Made by a program: the position numbers and the translations under genes. The notes under the pieces are model-generated. The model worked only from the letters and a program-made list of their open reading frames with translations, ran no database searches and was not told the origin of the DNA. Below, piece by piece: positions 56,496 through 63,766 of a stretch of DNA of 64,000 nucleotides. Numbering within the stretch: position 1 is the first letter of the stretch; the number at the start of each line of letters is the position of its first letter. The stretch comes from Arenicellales bacterium (GTDB lineage: Bacteria > Pseudomonadota > Gammaproteobacteria > Arenicellales > JAJDZL01), in contig OZ242211.1 of the NCBI GenBank assembly GCA_965206345.1, positions 2,599,078-2,663,077 on the forward strand. The letters are read 5' to 3'.

Positions 56496-57035
56496 TCATT
56501 GATTTCGAGATTGCTTTCGCCTCGCGCAAACGCTGCATAGCAGATCCAGATAAGGGTTAAACGCACTATCAGGGTATTGCCGCCATGTTTCAGGCGGTGA
56601 AAACTCATCACGCCAGATTCCGGATTGAGTTCGCTTAGCTTCCTGTTCGGCCTGTCTGTACTCCGATTCCATCCCCACAGTCAGTGCCCATCCTTCTTCG
56701 ACTAGCTGTCTGCCAAGGTCGGCTTCACCAACACTACAGCGAGCGAGTGACATACCGTCATTTTTTTGTATGATGGTACACCTAAACGACGGACTTTTAA
56801 TCAGTTCGTTGAGCCTCAGTGTTGCCTTGGCACCACACGGCCAAGATTTGCCTTCACCCTGACACTTTGCAGTGGCCTGCGGAACAGAAATGTCAGCGAG
56901 CGCAATCTTATCACCTTGATATTTAAGAGTATTGTCAGCCAGTAGCTTGACCTCATCGGCACTTGTCGGGGCGGAGTAAACAAAAACAAACGATGCTGTC
57001 AACAGTACTAGGCAGAACATACGGGCTATTTGCAT
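56496..57035 (-). CDS. Secreted thermonuclease (SNase)-like protein
   Basis: Signal peptide MQIARMFCLVLLTASFVFVYSAPTSA when started at 57035. SNase-like blocks: LADISVPQ, KSWPCGAKATLRLNELI, LGRQLVEEGWAL. Confidence 0.55.
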   Translation of the reverse strand: MQIARMFCLVLLTASFVFVYSAPTSADEVKLLADNTLKYQGDKIALADISVPQATAKCQGEGKSWPCGAKATLRLNELIKSPSFRCTIIQKNDGMSLARCSVGEADLGRQLVEEGWALTVGMESEYRQAEQEAKRTQSGIWRDEFSPPETWRQYPDSAFNPYLDLLCSVCARRKQSRNQ

Positions 57036-57120
57036 TGTCGGATACAGATATCCTGAAGTTACTGTGCGCACAATCGACGTAAAATCCATGATGTCAAGAC
57101 TATTTCTAGAGGTTGGGACT

Positions 57121-57936
57121 ATGAAATTGAAACTGTTCAAGAACTTGATCCGGTTGACACTGCTGTTTATTTTATTGCCTCTGGCAGCCTCTGTACATGC
57201 AGCAGACCTGACCATTTTTCACGCTGAACCGCCTGAATCGAGTTCAAGAACCCTTGATCATTCAGATTGGACGGACATTCTGTCAAAGTACATTAATCAA
57301 CGGGATGGCTTGAATTATTTTCGCTACGGTCAGGTTACTGAAGATGATTTTGAACGACTTGAAGATTACATTGAAGACCTAGAATCTGTAACCGTGACGC
57401 AGTTGGATGCTGATCAGCAGTTTGCCTACTGGGTCAATCTCTATAACGCGTTGACCGTTTGGGTCATTCTCGAGCACTATCCAGTTGATACGATTCGAGA
57501 CATTTCCTTCAGTCTGTTGACACGCGGTCCCTGGAAAGAGGAGTTTGTATCAGTGCAAGATGTCGATTTGACTCTTGATAACATCGAACACGATATCTTG
57601 CGTCCGGTTTATGCAGACAACAGAATTCACTACGCCGTCAATTGCGCTTCGATTGGCTGTCCAAACCTGCAGACTGTTGCATTCACCGCTGACAATCTGG
57701 AAGAGCAACTAGAGAAGGCTGCCAGAGAATATGTCAATCACCCACGTGGGGCCAGAATCGAAGACGATGAAATAATTGTCTCAAGCATTTTTGACTGGTA
57801 TCGTGAGGATTTTGGTGATTCAGAAATAGGTGTTATTGAACATTTGCTGGAATATGCCTCAAGTGAACTCGCGGAGGAACTGCAAGAGTTTGATGAGATT
57901 GATGACTACGAATACGACTGGAGGCTGAACGAGTAA
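57121..57936 (+). CDS. DUF547 domain protein with signal peptide
   Basis: MKLKLFKNLIRLTLLFILLPLAASVHA, then FAYWVNLYNALTV, TLDNIEHDILRP, IHYAVNCASIGCPNL. Confidence 0.8.
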   Translation: MKLKLFKNLIRLTLLFILLPLAASVHAADLTIFHAEPPESSSRTLDHSDWTDILSKYINQRDGLNYFRYGQVTEDDFERLEDYIEDLESVTVTQLDADQQFAYWVNLYNALTVWVILEHYPVDTIRDISFSLLTRGPWKEEFVSVQDVDLTLDNIEHDILRPVYADNRIHYAVNCASIGCPNLQTVAFTADNLEEQLEKAAREYVNHPRGARIEDDEIIVSSIFDWYREDFGDSEIGVIEHLLEYASSELAEELQEFDEIDDYEYDWRLNE

Positions 57937-57940
57937 GGGC

Positions 57941-58648
57941 ATGATAAGCCAGAAGCACATCACAGTCATCATTCCCGCGTTGAATGAAGAAGCTTCGATT
58001 GGCAGAGTTATTAGGGAAATTCCAGAATTCGTTGATCAGGTCGTAGTCGTTGACAATGATTCCACGGATGCCACAAGGGATGTTGCAGAAAAGGTCGGTG
58101 CCCGCGTCATTCAAGAGCCACGAAAGGGGTATGGTCGGGCCTGTCTGACCGGTATTGAGGCAGCAGGCAAAACAGACATATTTGCATTCATCAACGGGAG
58201 CTACAGTGACTATCCGGATGATTTGAATCCTTTAGTCAAATCCGTTGCAACGGAACAGTGTGATCTCGCGATTGGTTGTCGACAGGAGAACCCGAATGAG
58301 GCGAGAGGTTTGTTCAGGCACCAAAAGTGGGGTACTCAACTGGCTTGCCTCACGATTTGGCTGCTCCACCGTTACCGGTTCAAGGATTTAGGTCCTCTTC
58401 GTTGCATTTCAGTACCTGCTCTACAGCATTTGAAAATGCAAGATGAAGATTTTGGCTGGACTGCTGAGATGCAGGTAAAAGCGGTCAAGGCCCGTCAGAC
58501 TGTTCTTCAGATACCCGTCCGCTATCGAAAGAGAATTGGTAAATCTAAAATTTCTGGCACCATGAAAGGATCGCTGATGGCGGGGTATAAGATTTTTTAC
58601 TGGATAATTCGGCTAGCTATTTCATCCAAACTACCGGCTTATCGCTAG
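57941..58648 (+). CDS. Family 2 glycosyltransferase (Dpm1/GtrB-like)
   Basis: VIIPALNEE, VVVDNDSTD, GYGRA. Confidence 0.85.
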   Translation: MISQKHITVIIPALNEEASIGRVIREIPEFVDQVVVVDNDSTDATRDVAEKVGARVIQEPRKGYGRACLTGIEAAGKTDIFAFINGSYSDYPDDLNPLVKSVATEQCDLAIGCRQENPNEARGLFRHQKWGTQLACLTIWLLHRYRFKDLGPLRCISVPALQHLKMQDEDFGWTAEMQVKAVKARQTVLQIPVRYRKRIGKSKISGTMKGSLMAGYKIFYWIIRLAISSKLPAYR

Positions 58649-60003
58649 TCAGAATGGGACATTCTGAACCGATTTTGGCGATAGTCAAAAATAAGGGCGA
58701 CGGCAACACTCAATAGTTGAATAACCTGTGCAGAGAGCGCGACCTGATAGTTGCCAAGCTCCGATCCGGAAGTATTCAGGCCAACAATGTAGGAAAGTAA
58801 GATTGTGACAGACACCGTCCATGCCCAAGCGCTAGGCCAAAGAACAGCAAATGGTAAAACCCAGACCCAATACCAGGCATTCAGAACGGGTGAAAGCAGA
58901 AAAAACACACCAAATACCCAGTCCATTCGGGGTATGTCACAAGGCTGGTATAGCGTGGTGTGTCGTCTGAAAAAATAACCAAACCAAATCAAGAAAGTTG
59001 CGAGACAGATGTACCGAGCAAGTTCATCAGTTGTCAGATTACTCAGCAGATTGAAAATTGGGGCGTTGAATTGCCAGTTTGCCGCAAAGTGAGCGAGAAT
59101 GGTTAGGTCAGTCTGCTGCTGTCCAACTAGGAACGGTAAATACACAATTACTACGGTCGCCGGAATAAGAAGCCAGTAACGAACAGGCTGCCGGAATAGA
59201 AAAAACGGCAATGCCACAACTGCAACAATTTTTGTACAAATGGCTAATCCAAGCAGAATGCAACCTAGAGCCGTTTGATTGTGCTTCCTGAATATGAAAG
59301 CCGCCAGCAACAGACATACACCAATGACATCAGGATGTGCGGTAAATGCAAACTCCTTGATGACGAGAGGACACCAGGCATAAAGCAGAACCATTCTTGC
59401 GGGGGCCAGTTTGCCAAGCATGTAGACAACTGCCAGGTCAAACAGAACAATGATGAACTGCAGTAAATCGAGATTAACTGGGGAAAGAAGATGTGTTAAA
59501 ACAAAAACATATTGGAGCACCGGTGCATAAATCGTAGACAGATGAGGGTTATTTACCCCAGTGAGCATCTCCACACACGCCGGGCTTAAAGAATTTTCAG
59601 TAAAGAGAGATTCGGGTGGAATTCCGTAGGGAGACCCGTAACTGATAAAGAGACAGGCATCTAGCAGGTAACGAAAATAGTCGTCTTCCAGAATGGGTTC
59701 CCCCCAAACACCGATCAATCTGAATACACAGGCCCAGAAAAAAACAATTCCAAAACTGACGTGGTGATCTCCCTTGATTAGCCACAGCCAAAGTCCGAAG
59801 ACAATAGCAGCGGCAATTCCAATTCCACTCAGAAATGTGATCAGATCATATCCGGACGTATCTCGGGACAGAATTGCCTGGAGTACGAATACACCCGCCA
59901 GTAATGCTCCGGCGATGTTGAATGTCAATTGAACTCTGCTTGGTGCTTGCAATTTTACTTTGGCAACTTCGGCTATGACTTGAGTTAGATGATCAAGGCG
60001 CAC
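58645..60003 (-). CDS. Polytopic GT-C-like membrane protein (putative lipid-linked-sugar glycosyltransferase)
   Basis: At least ten hydrophobic segments and an early loop motif ILEDDYFRY that resembles the acidic GT-C loop. GTG start. The 3' end overlaps the GT2 gene by 4 nt (convergent). Confidence 0.55.
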   Translation of the reverse strand: MRLDHLTQVIAEVAKVKLQAPSRVQLTFNIAGALLAGVFVLQAILSRDTSGYDLITFLSGIGIAAAIVFGLWLWLIKGDHHVSFGIVFFWACVFRLIGVWGEPILEDDYFRYLLDACLFISYGSPYGIPPESLFTENSLSPACVEMLTGVNNPHLSTIYAPVLQYVFVLTHLLSPVNLDLLQFIIVLFDLAVVYMLGKLAPARMVLLYAWCPLVIKEFAFTAHPDVIGVCLLLAAFIFRKHNQTALGCILLGLAICTKIVAVVALPFFLFRQPVRYWLLIPATVVIVYLPFLVGQQQTDLTILAHFAANWQFNAPIFNLLSNLTTDELARYICLATFLIWFGYFFRRHTTLYQPCDIPRMDWVFGVFFLLSPVLNAWYWVWVLPFAVLWPSAWAWTVSVTILLSYIVGLNTSGSELGNYQVALSAQVIQLLSVAVALIFDYRQNRFRMSHSD

Positions 60004-60289
60004 TCAAATGTACATTTGTCCATTTATCTGATATGTTTTATCCTGTTTTTCTTGTTGCGTGGATGTACCAATTTATACTATGGCGTTGATGATAGAGACA
60101 GCAGGTGCGACCTTGATCGTGACACTGGGTTGACAATCTGATATGCGTGGGTTGGATACTACATGACTCTGCTGCGTCACGGATCTGCCTCGGTCTAGTA
60201 TCGTGGATCATCGCCAGCCATGGTTCGGCGAGCCGACATAGTCAAATCGAGGATTTTCCCACAAGGTCTGCACCTGCCATCGATTTCGG

Positions 60290-60685
60290 TCACTGTTCGG
60301 TTGCTTTCTGCAGATGGTTGAGATCGTGACAGCCGATGTCCCAGATGAAGCCGTCCAGTTCACGGGCGATTGCGGTTACGACGGTCTTGGAGCTCTTTCC
60401 TTTGCGACACATGGCGTGATATCTGGTGCACAGTCGTTTTTGCGCAGCCCAGACGCGCTCAGTTGTATACTCGGAGGCCTGTTGTGCTTTTCGCTGCAGG
60501 TGTCGGGTGTTGCGCGGCGGATGCCGATAGGCCCAGGCGCTTACGGTGAGGATGCGTCGCTCTGCGGCATTGCCGGTCCTGGTGATGGCACTGGTATGAC
60601 GCCGTGTGCCGCTGCTGAATTCACTGGGCACCAGGCCGAGGTTGGCTGGCGCTGTCAACAGTGGTTTAAATTCCACACTTTGTAA
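60290..60685 (-). mobile_element. 3' fragment of an IS110-family transposase gene (N-terminal catalytic domain missing)
   Basis: LGLVPSEFSSGTRRHTSAITRTGNAAERRILTVSAWAY..AQKRLCTRYHAMCRKGKSSKTVVTAIARELDGFIW matches the conserved GLVPSE.SSG....G.I.K.GN...R C-terminal domain. The region is visibly more GC-rich than its flanks. Confidence 0.7.
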
Positions 60686-60758
60686 AGGCGGAAAGACAAA
60701 ACCGGTTTTTGTCCTATGATTTGGATTTTTGCGGATTCAACTCAACAGGACGCCATCC

Positions 60759-60965
60759 ATGGTATTGCAACGGGAGTTTTTCATGATTCACCAACTGATG
60801 GCCGAAGGGCTGAACCACTCGCAGATTGCCAGAAGGCTCGGTGTCGACCGCAAGACGGTGCGCATGTACCTGCAGTGCGATCGCAACGATCTTGAGGCTT
60901 TGCGCAGGCAACCGAGGCCCAGCAATCTAGATCCGTATCGTCCGTATCTGTGCAGGCACCTGCGG
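60759..60965 (+). mobile_element. 5' fragment of an IS21-family istA transposase gene (HTH region only)
   Basis: MVLQREFFMIHQLMAEGLNHSQIARRLGVDRKTVRMYLQ...RPSNLDPYRPYL matches the IstA N-terminus. Similarity is lost after ~70 aa. Confidence 0.6.
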
Positions 60966-61189
60966 TGTCTCCTCAGTCGGGTTCGACGGGGAGATGTGCT
61001 GCTCTGTATAATGCCTCATGCCTGTTCCTACTATTGTCAATTACTGAATATAAGCCTATGTTAAATAGGCGTATACCCGATAATTTGTGGAGAACAGGTT
61101 AAAACATAGTGTCAAGTAATATCCCGACGAAGCGGCAAGATCAATCTGTAATTTAGAATAAATATTTTGAAACACTACTGTTGGGAAAT

Positions 61190-61615
61190 ATGATGTCATT
61201 CAATTCTTCTTCAAGCAGATCGTCCTCCCTGCGCATTGCAATGTTATTGCTTAGCAGTGTCTTTGCAATATCTTTGGTATTCGCTTCAAGTAATGGGAGC
61301 GGCGACAATGGCGGTTCATCAAGTGGTGGCAGTGGCGGTTCATCAAGTGGCGGCAGTGGCGGTAATGGCGGCGGTGATGCATTAGGCTACACTGTCTCTA
61401 AATCGACGTACGAGTTGGGAAAGAAAGTTTTCTATGAGCATGTCATTTGCGATAGTTGTCCTTACGCTGATCTTGAACACACTTCCGAAAGCGTTGGTTC
61501 CGTCTGGGGTCAATTGAAGAAAGACCTGAAAAAACGTGGTGCAATTGGTGAAAATCTGGAGCGTAAAGAACGTCGGTCGGTTAAAGCGTTTATTCGCAAA
61601 CGATTCGATCTTTAG
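61190..61615 (+). CDS. Small secreted protein, copy 1 (signal peptide, Gly/Ser linker, conserved 76-aa Cys-motif domain)
   Basis: RSSSLRIAMLLLSSVFAISLVFA signal, then the SGGSGGSSSGGSGGNGGG linker, then GYTVSKSTYELGKKVFYEHVICDSCPYADLEH...ERRSVKAFIRKRFDL. It is 70/76 identical to copy 2 in the C-terminal domain. Confidence 0.65.
   Translation: MMSFNSSSSRSSSLRIAMLLLSSVFAISLVFASSNGSGDNGGSSSGGSGGSSSGGSGGNGGGDALGYTVSKSTYELGKKVFYEHVICDSCPYADLEHTSESVGSVWGQLKKDLKKRGAIGENLERKERRSVKAFIRKRFDL
61310..61376 (+). repeat. 24-nt in-frame tandem repeat (about 2.3 copies) encoding the Gly/Ser linker of copy 1
   Basis: GGCGGTTCATCAAGTGGTGGCAGT / GGCGGTTCATCAAGTGGCGGCAGT / GGCGGTAATGGCGGCGGTG. Copy 2 lacks the expansion. 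Confidence 0.8.
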
Positions 61616-61690
61616 TATTCAATCAATGACCAACTGACTGAATCATCGTTCAGACATGCCTTTGTGTTTCTATAAGCAGATTCACAAAAG

Positions 61691-61730
61691 GAAAACGGCA
61701 AGTAATTAACGTCTTTGCCGTTTTCTGTTT
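61691..61730 (+). terminator. Rho-independent terminator after small-protein copy 1
   Basis: GAAAACGGCAAG-taattaacgt-CTTTGCCGTTTTC followed by TGTTT. Confidence 0.6.
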
Positions 61731-61866
61731 CAGGGTATAGAGTCATTTCCAATCTGCGCTGTGACTCGATTCTCTTTTCGAAAGCAGCAACCTTTGTTTC
61801 GAACCAGTTGGTGTGAAGGCCACCTAGCGATCGTCAAGTTGAGCGCACGCGTGTATCGATTGGCTG

Positions 61867-62066
61867 ATGTTTGAAGTGATTTCGCACAACGAATACGCAG
61901 TATTCGTATTCATCGCCGTTTCGCTGGATTTGTACATGGCTCATTCGGCTTTGGGTTTCCTTTACTGCCGACAGCCATGTTCTCCACTTGTATTGATCTT
62001 CGGATAGCCATGCTCATCACACTGATTCCGACTGTTACCGTCAATTTGTTCAGCATGGCCAAAGGC
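61867..62066 (+). pseudogene. Truncated, frameshifted 5' copy of the TauE/SafE gene
   Basis: ATGTTTGAAGTGATTTCG.. parallels 62996 onward. A 1-nt deletion relative to the intact copy gives MFEVISHNEYAVFVFIAVSLDLYMAHSALGF..stop. Homology ends at the duplication junction ~62066. Confidence 0.75.
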
Positions 62067-62272
62067 CAAGACAATCGCAGCGAAAATTCCAATTCCACTC
62101 AGAAATGTGATCAGATAATATCCGGACGTATCTCGGGAGAGAATTGCCTGCAGTACGAATACACCCGCCAGTTATGCTCCAGCGATGTTGAATGTCAATT
62201 GAACTATGCTCGGTGCTTTCAATTTTCTTTGGCAACTTCGGCTATGGCTGGAAGCGGAAGATCAAGATGCAC
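62067..62272 (-). pseudogene. Duplicated 5' fragment of the GT-C-like membrane protein gene
   Basis: Aligns with 59797-60003. Translation from the equivalent GTG gives VHLDLPLPAIAEVAKEN-stop. Confidence 0.75.
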
Positions 62273-62373
62273 TCAAATATACTTTTTTCAGTTTATCTGG
62301 TAAAATTGTCGACGAAGCTGCTAGATCAATCTATATTTAAAATAAAATTTTAGAAACACTACAGTTGGGAATT

Positions 62374-62745
62374 ATGATGTCATTCATTTCTTCTTTAGGT
62401 AGATCTTCCTCCCTGCGTATTGCTATGTTATTGCTTTGCAGTGTCTTTGCAACTTCTGTGGCATTTGCTTCAGGTGATGGGGGTGGGGGTTCATCAGGCG
62501 GCGGTAACGGGTCAGGCTACACTGTCTCAAATTCGACGTACGAGTTGGGAAAGAAAGTTTTCCAAGAGCATGTCATTTGCGAAAGTTGCCCTTACGCCGA
62601 TCTTGAACACACTTCCGAAAGCGTTGGTTCCGTCTGGAATCAATTGAAAAAAGATCTGAAAAGACGTGGTACGATTGGTGAAAATCTAGAGCGTAAAGAA
62701 CGTCGTTCGGTTAAAGCGTTTATTCGCAAACGATTCGACCTTTAG
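62374..62745 (+). CDS. Small secreted protein, copy 2
   Basis: RSSSLRIAMLLLCSVFATSVAFA signal, a short GDGGGGSSGGGNGS linker, then GYTVSNSTYELGKKVFQEHVICESCPYADLEH...ERRSVKAFIRKRFDL. Confidence 0.65.
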   Translation: MMSFISSLGRSSSLRIAMLLLCSVFATSVAFASGDGGGGSSGGGNGSGYTVSNSTYELGKKVFQEHVICESCPYADLEHTSESVGSVWNQLKKDLKRRGTIGENLERKERRSVKAFIRKRFDL

Positions 62746-62816
62746 TATTCAATCAATGACCACCTAACTGGACGTACAGACCTACCTTTGTGTTTCTATA
62801 AGCAGATTCACAAAAG

Positions 62817-62856
62817 GAAAACGGCAAGGATTTAACGTCTTTGCCGTTTTCTGTTT
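62817..62856 (+). terminator. Rho-independent terminator after small-protein copy 2
   Basis: GAAAACGGCAAG-gatttaacgt-CTTTGCCGTTTTC followed by TGTTT. Confidence 0.6.
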
Positions 62857-62995
62857 CAGGGTGTAGCGCCATATTCAATCTGCTGCGCTTTGAACCGATC
62901 CTCTTCTCGAAAGCAGCAATCGTTGTTTCGAACCATCTGGCGTGAAAACCACACGGCGATCGGTAAGTTGAACGCATGCGTGTATCGATTGACTG

Positions 62996-63766
62996 ATGTT
63001 TGAAGTGATTTCGCTCAACGAATACGCAGTATTCGTGCTCATCGCTGTATTCGCAGGATTTGTGCATGGTTCAATTGGCTTGGGGTTTCCTTTGCTGTCG
63101 ACAGCCATGCTCTCCACTTTTATTGATCTTCGGATTGCCATCCTCATCACCCTGATTCCGACTGTTACTGTCAATGTGTTCAGCATTGCCAAAGGCGGTA
63201 ATTGGCGAGAAAGTCTGGGACAGTTTTGGCCGCTGGCAGTGTGGTGTTTGATCGGGTCAGTCATTGGTGCTTGGGTCATTGTCTATACCGACCCAACGCC
63301 ATACAAGTTATTGTTAGCACTACTGATTTTTCTATATCTTGTGGCAGATCGAACCAGTCGGAGGTTATTAAGCAAAGCTTTGCAATTTCCGAGAGTCTCA
63401 CAGTTTGGTTTTGGAATGACAGCCGGATTTTCAGCGGGATCGACCAATACCATGGTACCAATTCTTGTAATTTACTCGCTCGAATCTGGTTGGGCAAAGA
63501 CTGTGATGGTACAGGTTTTCAATATGTGCTTTTTCTCAGGAAAAGCTGCCCAGTTGGCCGTATTCGGCACGTCGGGAATATTTACGCTTCAGATATTTTT
63601 GACTACACTCCCCATTGCGGGCATCGCCGCTGGTTCACTGTACTTGGGCCAGTTACTACAGGATCGAATTGACATCCATCTCTTTCGCCGAATCATCAAA
63701 ATGGTATTGTTGATTCTTGGCATCATATTGACAGCACAGGTTTTGCTTTCTTTGTTCGGAATGTAA
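62996..63766 (+). CDS. TauE/SafE (DUF81) family membrane transporter
   Basis: FAGFVHGSIGLGFPLLSTAML, GFSAGSTNTMVPILVIY. About eight TM segments. Confidence 0.85.
   Translation: MFEVISLNEYAVFVLIAVFAGFVHGSIGLGFPLLSTAMLSTFIDLRIAILITLIPTVTVNVFSIAKGGNWRESLGQFWPLAVWCLIGSVIGAWVIVYTDPTPYKLLLALLIFLYLVADRTSRRLLSKALQFPRVSQFGFGMTAGFSAGSTNTMVPILVIYSLESGWAKTVMVQVFNMCFFSGKAAQLAVFGTSGIFTLQIFLTTLPIAGIAAGSLYLGQLLQDRIDIHLFRRIIKMVLLILGIILTAQVLLSLFGM

Follow-up and report, generated by a model that had tools for sequence, protein, structure and literature searches.

Tandem duplications formed at microhomology in bacteria run head-to-tail with one junction, carry a 7-9-bp motif at both parental sites, and leave intact genes on the outside and truncated genes on the inside; most of them are unstable and are lost by homologous recombination. 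Here, we describe a locus of this form in a 64,000-nucleotide stretch of DNA from a marine Arenicellales bacterium (contig OZ242211.1, positions 2,599,078 to 2,663,077 of the forward strand), which we refer to as the window and to which all coordinates apply unless another locus is named. Two genes encoding versions of a small secreted protein lie in the window between a gene for a polytopic membrane protein, which we call GT-C-like, and a tauE/safE-family gene, and our analysis demonstrated that this arrangement is a segmental duplication in diverged head-to-tail copies, in which one junction and two gene stubs accompany two small-protein genes that are both intact. Unlike most microhomology-mediated tandem duplications, this one is old, with copies that are ~12% diverged and that are common to three lineages, and, unlike a typical example, one of its copies is interrupted by the debris of insertion sequences (ISs).

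The genes at this locus also recall a second group of described systems, i.e., the periplasmic glycosylation modules that pair a GT2 polyprenyl-phosphate-sugar synthase with a GT-C transferase, such as GtrB/Gtr, ArnC/ArnT, and Ppm1 with the actinobacterial Pmt or MptA/B.

Structure of the duplication and its junction

Comparison of the region with itself using blastn identified three collinear, same-strand blocks with 86-88.5% identity and E values of 5e-50 to 0, and a separate repeat search of the window recovered the same blocks. The first block pairs 59787-60030 in copy A with 62058-62299 in copy B (88.5% identity, E = 8e-83), the second pairs 61125-61297 with 62310-62481 (86.2% identity, E = 5e-50), and the third pairs 61367-62066 with 62497-63196 (88.2% identity, E = 0). 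A first-pass annotation of this DNA had claimed collinear homology across the repeated blocks and had put their identity, by eye, at roughly 80-90 percent, and the alignment bears out both.

As delimited by blastn and the repeat search, copy A (59787-62066; 2,280 bp) contains the 5′ end of the GT-C-like gene, the IS debris, small gene A, a terminator, a spacer and a tauE stub, and copy B (62058-63196; 1,139 bp) contains a GT-C stub, small gene B, a terminator, a spacer and the 5′ end of the intact tauE. The repeated unit consists of the 5′ end of the GT-C-like gene (217 nt, 72 codons), the divergent intergenic region, the small gene, a hairpin with a U-tract, the spacer and the 5′ end of tauE (200-201 nt, 67 codons), which is the content that the first-pass annotation had listed. 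Its picture of two units in tandem also stands, but the units are unequal in length, and the 1,094 bp of IS debris in copy A had been overlooked. Copy B is collinear with the single unit present in a related locus, L002. The two copies are adjacent, in the same order and on the same strand, and abut at 62066/62067, with one new junction, an intact GT-C-like gene on the left, an intact tauE on the right, and truncated ends of both genes inside.

Examination of the junction (62058-62066), which reads GCCAAAGGC followed directly by CAAGACAAT, demonstrated that codon 67 of tauE continues into the antisense of codon 72 of the GT-C-like gene, i.e., the opposite-orientation fusion is located exactly where it had been placed before, at 62066/62067. 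This point lies inside GCCAAAGNC, an 8-of-9-base microhomology, and one base has been lost right after it. The left parental microhomology, GCCAAAGTC (59787-59795), is within the GT-C-like gene, and the right parental microhomology, GCCAAAGGC (63188-63196), is within tauE. The parental site in tauE reads ...CAGCATTGCCAAAGGCGGTAATTGG, the parental site in the GT-C-like gene reads ...CCACAGCCAAAGTCCGAAGACAAT, and the sequence across the junction reads ...CAGCATGGCCAAAGGCCAAGACAAT. The left site is kept in the single-copy loci L002, L004, L005 and L006, and the motif GCCAAAG occurs at the two parental sites not only in the window but also in every single-copy relative that we examined (the same four loci), which shows that an unduplicated locus already offers the substrate for the event.

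Single-unit relatives and shared junction

Relatives were found by context look-ups and by a scan of one genome per species. The comparison with single-unit genomes that the first-pass annotation had proposed identified five close relatives in which the same locus is unduplicated: L002, where the single unit is clean, L004, L005 (located on the same contig as L001), L006, and L007, whose contig stops before tauE. The gene order around the single unit is HAD hydrolase, a 197-aa gene, DUF547, GT2, the GT-C-like gene, the small gene, tauE and amine oxidase.

The duplication is also present in two assemblies from other samples, L003 (ERZ25069412; 5,992 bp) and L034 (ERZ25069355; 458.9 kb). Both differ from the window at 3-8% of sites, yet they contain both copies and a junction identical to that of the window, and this junction is of common ancestry in the three assemblies.

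Truncated genes at the inner ends

The intact tauE/safE-family gene (62996-63766, plus strand) encodes a membrane protein of 256 aa that belongs to the TauE/SafE family (Pfam TauE, E = 1e-19; PF01925 at 71.4 bits against a cut-off of 32.6, residues 14-243), and its first 67 codons form the right end of copy B. These first 67 codons are also what makes up the tauE stub in copy A (61867-62066, plus strand), which in the window has a 1-nt deletion at codon 18. This frameshift, a change from T4 to T3 in a homopolymer (~61919), is specific to the window and is absent from L003 (4605-4841) and L034 (6613-6849), where the stub is an open 79-codon reading frame made of 67 TauE codons and 12 junction codons. 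The earlier description of this stub as killed by a 1-nt deletion holds for the window, but not for L003 and L034; the stub is a truncated gene whether it is frameshifted or open.

The intact GT-C-like gene (58645-60003, minus strand) encodes 452 aa when read from the GTG at 60003; a TTG at 59928 is an alternative start. Its first 72 codons (59787-60003) form the left end of copy A. The GT-C stub in copy B (62067-62272, minus strand) keeps its GTG at 62272 and has lost a T in AAAGTAAAA. This 1-nt deletion, located after codon 15, moves the frame onto a stop two codons later and is common to the window, L003 and L034. In addition, the window alone has a TAA in the original reading frame of the stub, and there is a 1-nt deletion at the junction; the first-pass annotation had called the stub dead for an early stop. 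Between the stub and the intact 5′ end, dN/dS is 0.40-0.55, which fits the value expected from one neutral and one constrained branch.

Conservation of the two small genes

Small gene A (61193-61615, plus strand) encodes a protein of 140 aa with a signal peptide ending in VFA before S, a 32-aa Gly/Ser linker and a 76-aa CxxCP domain. Small gene B (62377-62745, plus strand) encodes a protein of 122 aa that is 100% identical to the database protein P0001; exact-sequence look-ups for the window's own small proteins returned no record. Six residues of the domain, together with the linker, distinguish the two proteins, and a 24-nt tandem repeat found by the repeat search (61301-61363, plus strand; 2.6 copies) codes for part of the copy A linker. 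A conserved region upstream of gene A (61125-61192, plus strand) is 91% identical to 62310-62376. Downstream, gene A is followed by a terminator-like hairpin with a 13-bp stem and then UUUUCUGUUU (61690-61726, plus strand; folding energy -15.8 kcal/mol, z -3.1), and gene B by one with a 13-bp stem and a U-tract (62816-62852, plus strand; -22.4 kcal/mol, z -5.3). Both small open reading frames (ORFs) are open and keep their terminators, as had been claimed.

Searches for other signals at the small genes gave little. A simple terminator scan picked neither hairpin; the loop of hairpin A, at 11 nt, is over the scanner's limit, and that of hairpin B is 5 nt. A promoter scan returned 9 sites against 5.0 ± 2.6 by chance, and was not used as evidence. 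Nothing was found above the gathering score in Rfam, and a match to NrrF at 20-24 bits, against a threshold of 60 bits, was taken as chance, driven by the shared hairpin. We also discarded the idea that the small protein is a lipoprotein: where copy B has its only candidate Cys, copy A has Ser, and the preceding residues form no lipobox.

Divergence between copies A and B is greatest in the spacer (p 0.19; distance 0.22) and in the 27 bp of GT-C upstream sequence (p 0.185), followed by the region encoding the signal peptide and linker (p 0.16, plus 54 gap columns) and by the two stubs (p 0.10), and is smallest in the upstream region of the small gene (p 0.091), the folded domain of the small ORF (p 0.074) and the 3′ untranslated region (3′UTR) with the terminator (p 0.069). 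The small ORFs, their upstream regions and their 3′UTRs diverge less than the spacer, i.e., the expression signals and coding sequence of both copies are conserved while neighbouring sequence drifts, and both copies are presumably expressed. By the Nei-Gojobori method, small genes A and B compared over their whole length give a dN/dS of 0.30 (dS 0.34), and their domains by themselves give 0.23 (dS 0.20). The domain value between copies is 0.23-0.35 in all three carriers, where pairs of same-copy orthologues show 0-3 synonymous and 0-3 non-synonymous differences over 76 codons. For the flanking genes DUF547, GT2 and tauE, dS between the window and its single-copy relatives is 0.18-0.38. The neutral divergence between copies (~0.2) is thus about equal to that between lineages, indicating that the event is old; of the two options offered in the first-pass annotation, an old event or fast divergence around intact small ORFs, it is the old event that dS of 0.20-0.34, a spacer distance of 0.22 and a domain dN/dS of 0.23 uphold.

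Insertion-sequence debris in copy A

The insert present only in copy A (60031-61124) is 1,094 bp of degraded IS DNA, in place of which copy B has 10 bp (62300-62309). The GC content of its core is 0.54-0.61 (60100-60700, 60800-61000) compared with 0.35-0.51 in the flanking DNA. The insert contains a C-terminal fragment of an IS110-family transposase (60290-60676, minus strand; 128 codons; Pfam Transposase_20, E = 4e-6; NCBIfam transpos_IS110, E = 2e-13, profile positions 256-338 of 343), and an N-terminal helix-turn-helix fragment of an IS21-family IstA (60783-61064, plus strand; NCBIfam transpos_IS21, E = 3e-11, profile positions 1-61 of 294; Pfam HTH_29). Neither transposase is complete, and we class both as remnants and not as functional IS110 or IS21 elements. 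A live IS elsewhere in the window was rejected as the origin of the debris, since no second copy of the insert is present in the window. The full debris is also found in L034. L003 is without the stretch corresponding to 60113-60871, which is bounded by the short direct repeat CAG(G)TGCGAyC, and this difference is most simply read as a later microhomology deletion in L003.

The debris starts 27 bp upstream of the GTG of the GT-C-like gene and its other end coincides with the position of a weak -35-like hexamer of the small gene in copy B; the segments concerned are 60007-60035 (minus strand) and 61124-61152 (plus strand). It may have altered the promoters of both divergent genes; the promoters predicted here are no better than chance.

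The intergenic region between the GT-C-like gene and the small gene holds different ISs in L001/L005, in L004, and in the window together with L034 and L003. Three different, independent IS insertions in the same short interval mark it as a hot spot for insertion or rearrangement. The interval contains a 474-aa DUF772-type transposase in L001 (4226-5650; the same contig as L005) and a 339-aa transposase in L004 (6850-7869).

Origin of the duplication

We consider it probable that this locus arose by an old, in-place tandem duplication at microhomology, which was kept because both small genes are useful. A unit of ~1.14 kb, reaching from GT-C-like codon 72 to tauE codon 67, would have been duplicated head-to-tail in the ancestor of this Arenicellales lineage, through illegitimate recombination or replication slippage between two copies of GCCAAAGNC, one in each flanking gene. 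The outcome would have been intact flanking genes on the outside, two truncated ends on the inside, and the small gene present twice, each time with its own upstream region and terminator. Afterwards, the GT-C stub would have decayed as a pseudogene, IS110- and IS21-family elements would have inserted just upstream of small gene A and then degraded to the present 1,094 bp, and purifying selection would have held both small genes while their Gly/Ser linkers changed length.

Several observations weigh against an in-place duplication. In neighbour-joining trees, copies A and B do not group together: copy B groups with the single-copy loci L002 and L004 (distance ~0.09), and copy A is alone, at 0.113-0.130 from everything. 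In the neutral spacer, all distances are alike, both those between copies and those between lineages, and because the distance between copies equals that between lineages at neutral sites, a plain in-lineage duplication must be as old as the radiation of the lineages; at such an age, either several relatives would have lost one copy or recombination would later have spread the duplicated allele. Furthermore, the tauE stub seems constrained. Compared with the intact tauE its dN/dS is ~0.2, with 11-14 synonymous and 8-10 non-synonymous differences, and ~20 non-synonymous changes would be expected under neutral decay, a rough estimate that takes a rate of 0.13 per site for the stub branch and 0.05 times that for the intact branch. 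The low count may reflect residual constraint, an imported origin or chance. Finally, identity between the window and L003 is a mosaic, ranging from 83% to 99% among 200-bp segments, which suggests frequent homologous recombination among lineages, and recombination of this frequency limits dating. Across 56536-63256, this identity holds at 88-92% for long stretches, rises to 95-99% at 57436-58435 and in the greater part of the two small-gene regions, and falls to 83.5% within the GT-C stub.

The alternative that best accommodates these observations, although we regard it as unlikely, is an import of copy A, in which DNA of a related Arenicellales lineage entered through homology-facilitated illegitimate recombination. 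The donor DNA, which would have spanned the GT-C gene, the small gene and the beginning of tauE, would have recombined through homology in the GT-C gene, with its other end joined illegitimately at GCCAAAG, and the two copies would have been diverged already on the day of the event. An import would explain why copy A is about equidistant from copy B and every single-copy relative while copy B sits with L002 and L004, and why most differences between tauE and its stub, which would belong to the imported DNA, are synonymous, as expected if the two diverged largely while both were working genes. The mosaic identity also shows that recombination between these lineages is frequent. However, the excess distance of copy A is small (~83 vs 66 differences in 700 bp), and relaxed selection on the tauE stub that it holds could have added differences, though few of those in the stub are non-synonymous. 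The distance of L006 from the other lineages matches that of copy A, no lineage resembling a donor was found, and the dN/dS of 0.40-0.55 for the GT-C stub fits plain decay after an in-place duplication. The two models give the same final structure, so sequence alone cannot separate them.

The usefulness of both small genes would be called into question if one of them were a decaying redundant duplicate, merely not yet disabled and with nothing selected, which we consider improbable. With 17 differences between two domain sequences of 231 nt, the power to detect selection is limited, and the IS debris that immediately precedes copy A may have separated it from its promoter. Against this, both stubs have gained indels or stops and the spacer has diverged by 19%, compared with 7-9% in the small ORFs, the 3′UTR with its hairpin and the 67-68 bp upstream; no frame-breaking change has occurred in the small ORFs in any of the three lineages; the domain dN/dS is below 0.4 in all three genomes; and two-copy arrangements of the small gene arose independently in other Arenicellales, as described below. 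An assembly artefact, i.e., a mis-joined or expanded repeat in a metagenome-assembled genome (MAG), which the first-pass annotation had named as an outcome that would overturn its reading, has next to no probability: the source is probably a MAG, as are all the related records, the identical protein is on record from one 3.19-Mb contig only, and the sole window-specific frameshift lies in a homopolymer, but copies that are ~12% different, one of them with a 1,094-bp insert, are no mis-expanded identical repeat, and with ERZ25069412 and ERZ25069355 sharing the junction and both copies despite their own divergence from the window, a mis-assembled repeat is all but excluded.

Read as an in-place duplication at microhomology, the event is of a textbook type, i.e., microhomology-mediated and followed by decay of the redundant ends and IS insertion. 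It offers a clean, datable example, since the unduplicated locus, the microhomology at each parental site and three diverged carriers can all be compared.

The small-protein family

The small proteins have relatives in 38 database clusters, and a profile search of 1.84 billion representatives identified 78 clusters at 50% identity, with proteins of ~75-210 aa except for one 837-aa match. All the taxonomically placed members are from Arenicellales or related Gammaproteobacteria, and several are from sponge metagenomes. Scanned against Pfam and NCBIfam, the two small proteins and distant members of the family matched no model, and a PDB profile search of the small protein returned artificial Gly/Ser linkers only; the family is undescribed.

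Members begin with a hydrophobic N-terminal signal-like segment that ends in (A/V)FA before S, followed by a Gly/Ser linker and then by a domain of 76 aa. Twenty-six positions of this domain are invariant, among them those in Y-x-x-G-K-x-x-F, in C-x-x-C-x-Y and in the basic tail FIRKRF-x-L. The linker varies from ~5 to ~50 residues among relatives and is coded by GGN-rich repeats (61289-61384 and 62473-62514 in the window). Some metagenome versions (P0032, P0038) are frameshifted within the linker, which could be sequencing error or slippage-prone variation.

The domain is predicted by AlphaFold2 to fold into three helices (pLDDT 95). Like class I c-type cytochromes, it has Cys-x-x-Cys right after the first helix and a GKK-x-F motif before it, and 10 of the 11 top Foldseek matches of the domain model in the PDB are cytochrome c domains, all with E > 1 and with TM-scores of 0.38-0.59; the full-length model returned non-significant cytochrome c matches only. 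Unlike in class I cytochrome c, the haem His of CxxCH is replaced by Pro, Ile, Leu or Thr, followed by Tyr or Phe, in 24 of 24 aligned sequences. All 34 distant members that we read have CxxCP, with no CxxCH seen, the alignment contains no conserved His or Met that could be an axial ligand, and there is no significant match to a Pfam cytochrome. We treat the resemblance of the predicted fold to cytochrome c as a lead, and not as membership.

Gene neighbourhood and possible role

The small gene divergently adjoins the GT-C-like gene in 26 distinct Arenicellales loci (L001-L026 and L033, with L005 on the contig of L001), and a GT2 gene (Pfam Glycos_transf_2, E = 1e-19) is usually located alongside this pair. 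The pairing extends to two distant members of the family, identified with profile E values of 3e-4 (L035) and 5e-16 (L036), where the small gene adjoins a 449-aa homologue of the GT-C-like protein that is 33% (L035; 918-4198) or 46% (L036; 498-2183) identical to that of the window; at L036, the GT-C-like gene is the only neighbour that could be checked. L035 also has a GT2 gene, together with a gene predicted to encode an outer-membrane barrel (Phenol_MetA_deg). A second, unlinked pair of a GT-C-like gene (a paralogue with 62% identity) and a small CxxC gene is found in L014-L016, which count among the 26 loci and come from genomes in which the main locus is present too; this pair is without GT2, DUF547 or tauE, and indicates that the pairing of the two genes has itself been duplicated as a unit.

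The small gene has been amplified more than once. In L019 (7591-8390, 9191-10026) and L022 (7583-8390, 13122-13878), which are from more distant Arenicellales, an independent segmental duplication involves the small gene and its upstream region, with 77-85% identity between copies; those of L022 are separated by a transposase and unrelated genes. Together with the duplication in the window, this makes at least two independent segmental duplications of the small gene. Two old small-gene paralogues are present in L021, L023 and L024, and two copies are also present in L027 and L028.

The GT-C assignment of the 452-aa membrane protein is itself weakly supported. Its orthologues have weak precomputed matches to Pfam MptA_B_family (with the strength unmarked for L036), hmmscan assigned the window protein to no family at E <= 0.1 and gave only GT87, with an E value of 1.4, and no sequence match was found in the PDB; the protein has an acidic EDD motif in an early loop. 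Judged from the genes alone, the locus resembles three-component glycosylation modules in that a GT2 gene lies beside one for a polytopic membrane protein of ~450 aa with an EDD loop motif, whose orthologues weakly match MptA_B_family or GT87. The gene for the small secreted protein with its Ser/Gly linker adjoins the pair in most of the Arenicellales loci and in L035. The locus differs from such modules in that no flippase gene was identified here.

On the basis of this neighbourhood, we tentatively propose the small CxxCP protein as a periplasmic partner of a GT2 and GT-C-like module, acting either as an acceptor glycosylated on its linker or as an accessory subunit, a role that we regard as possible but not as the likelier outcome. 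The gene-neighbourhood rule provides a candidate periplasmic glycosylation acceptor or partner in uncultured symbionts. If this role is correct, host-associated Arenicellales repeatedly amplify and vary the small gene, through tandem duplication, changes in linker length and divergence of paralogues, and the dosage or diversity of the small protein would matter at the cell surface.

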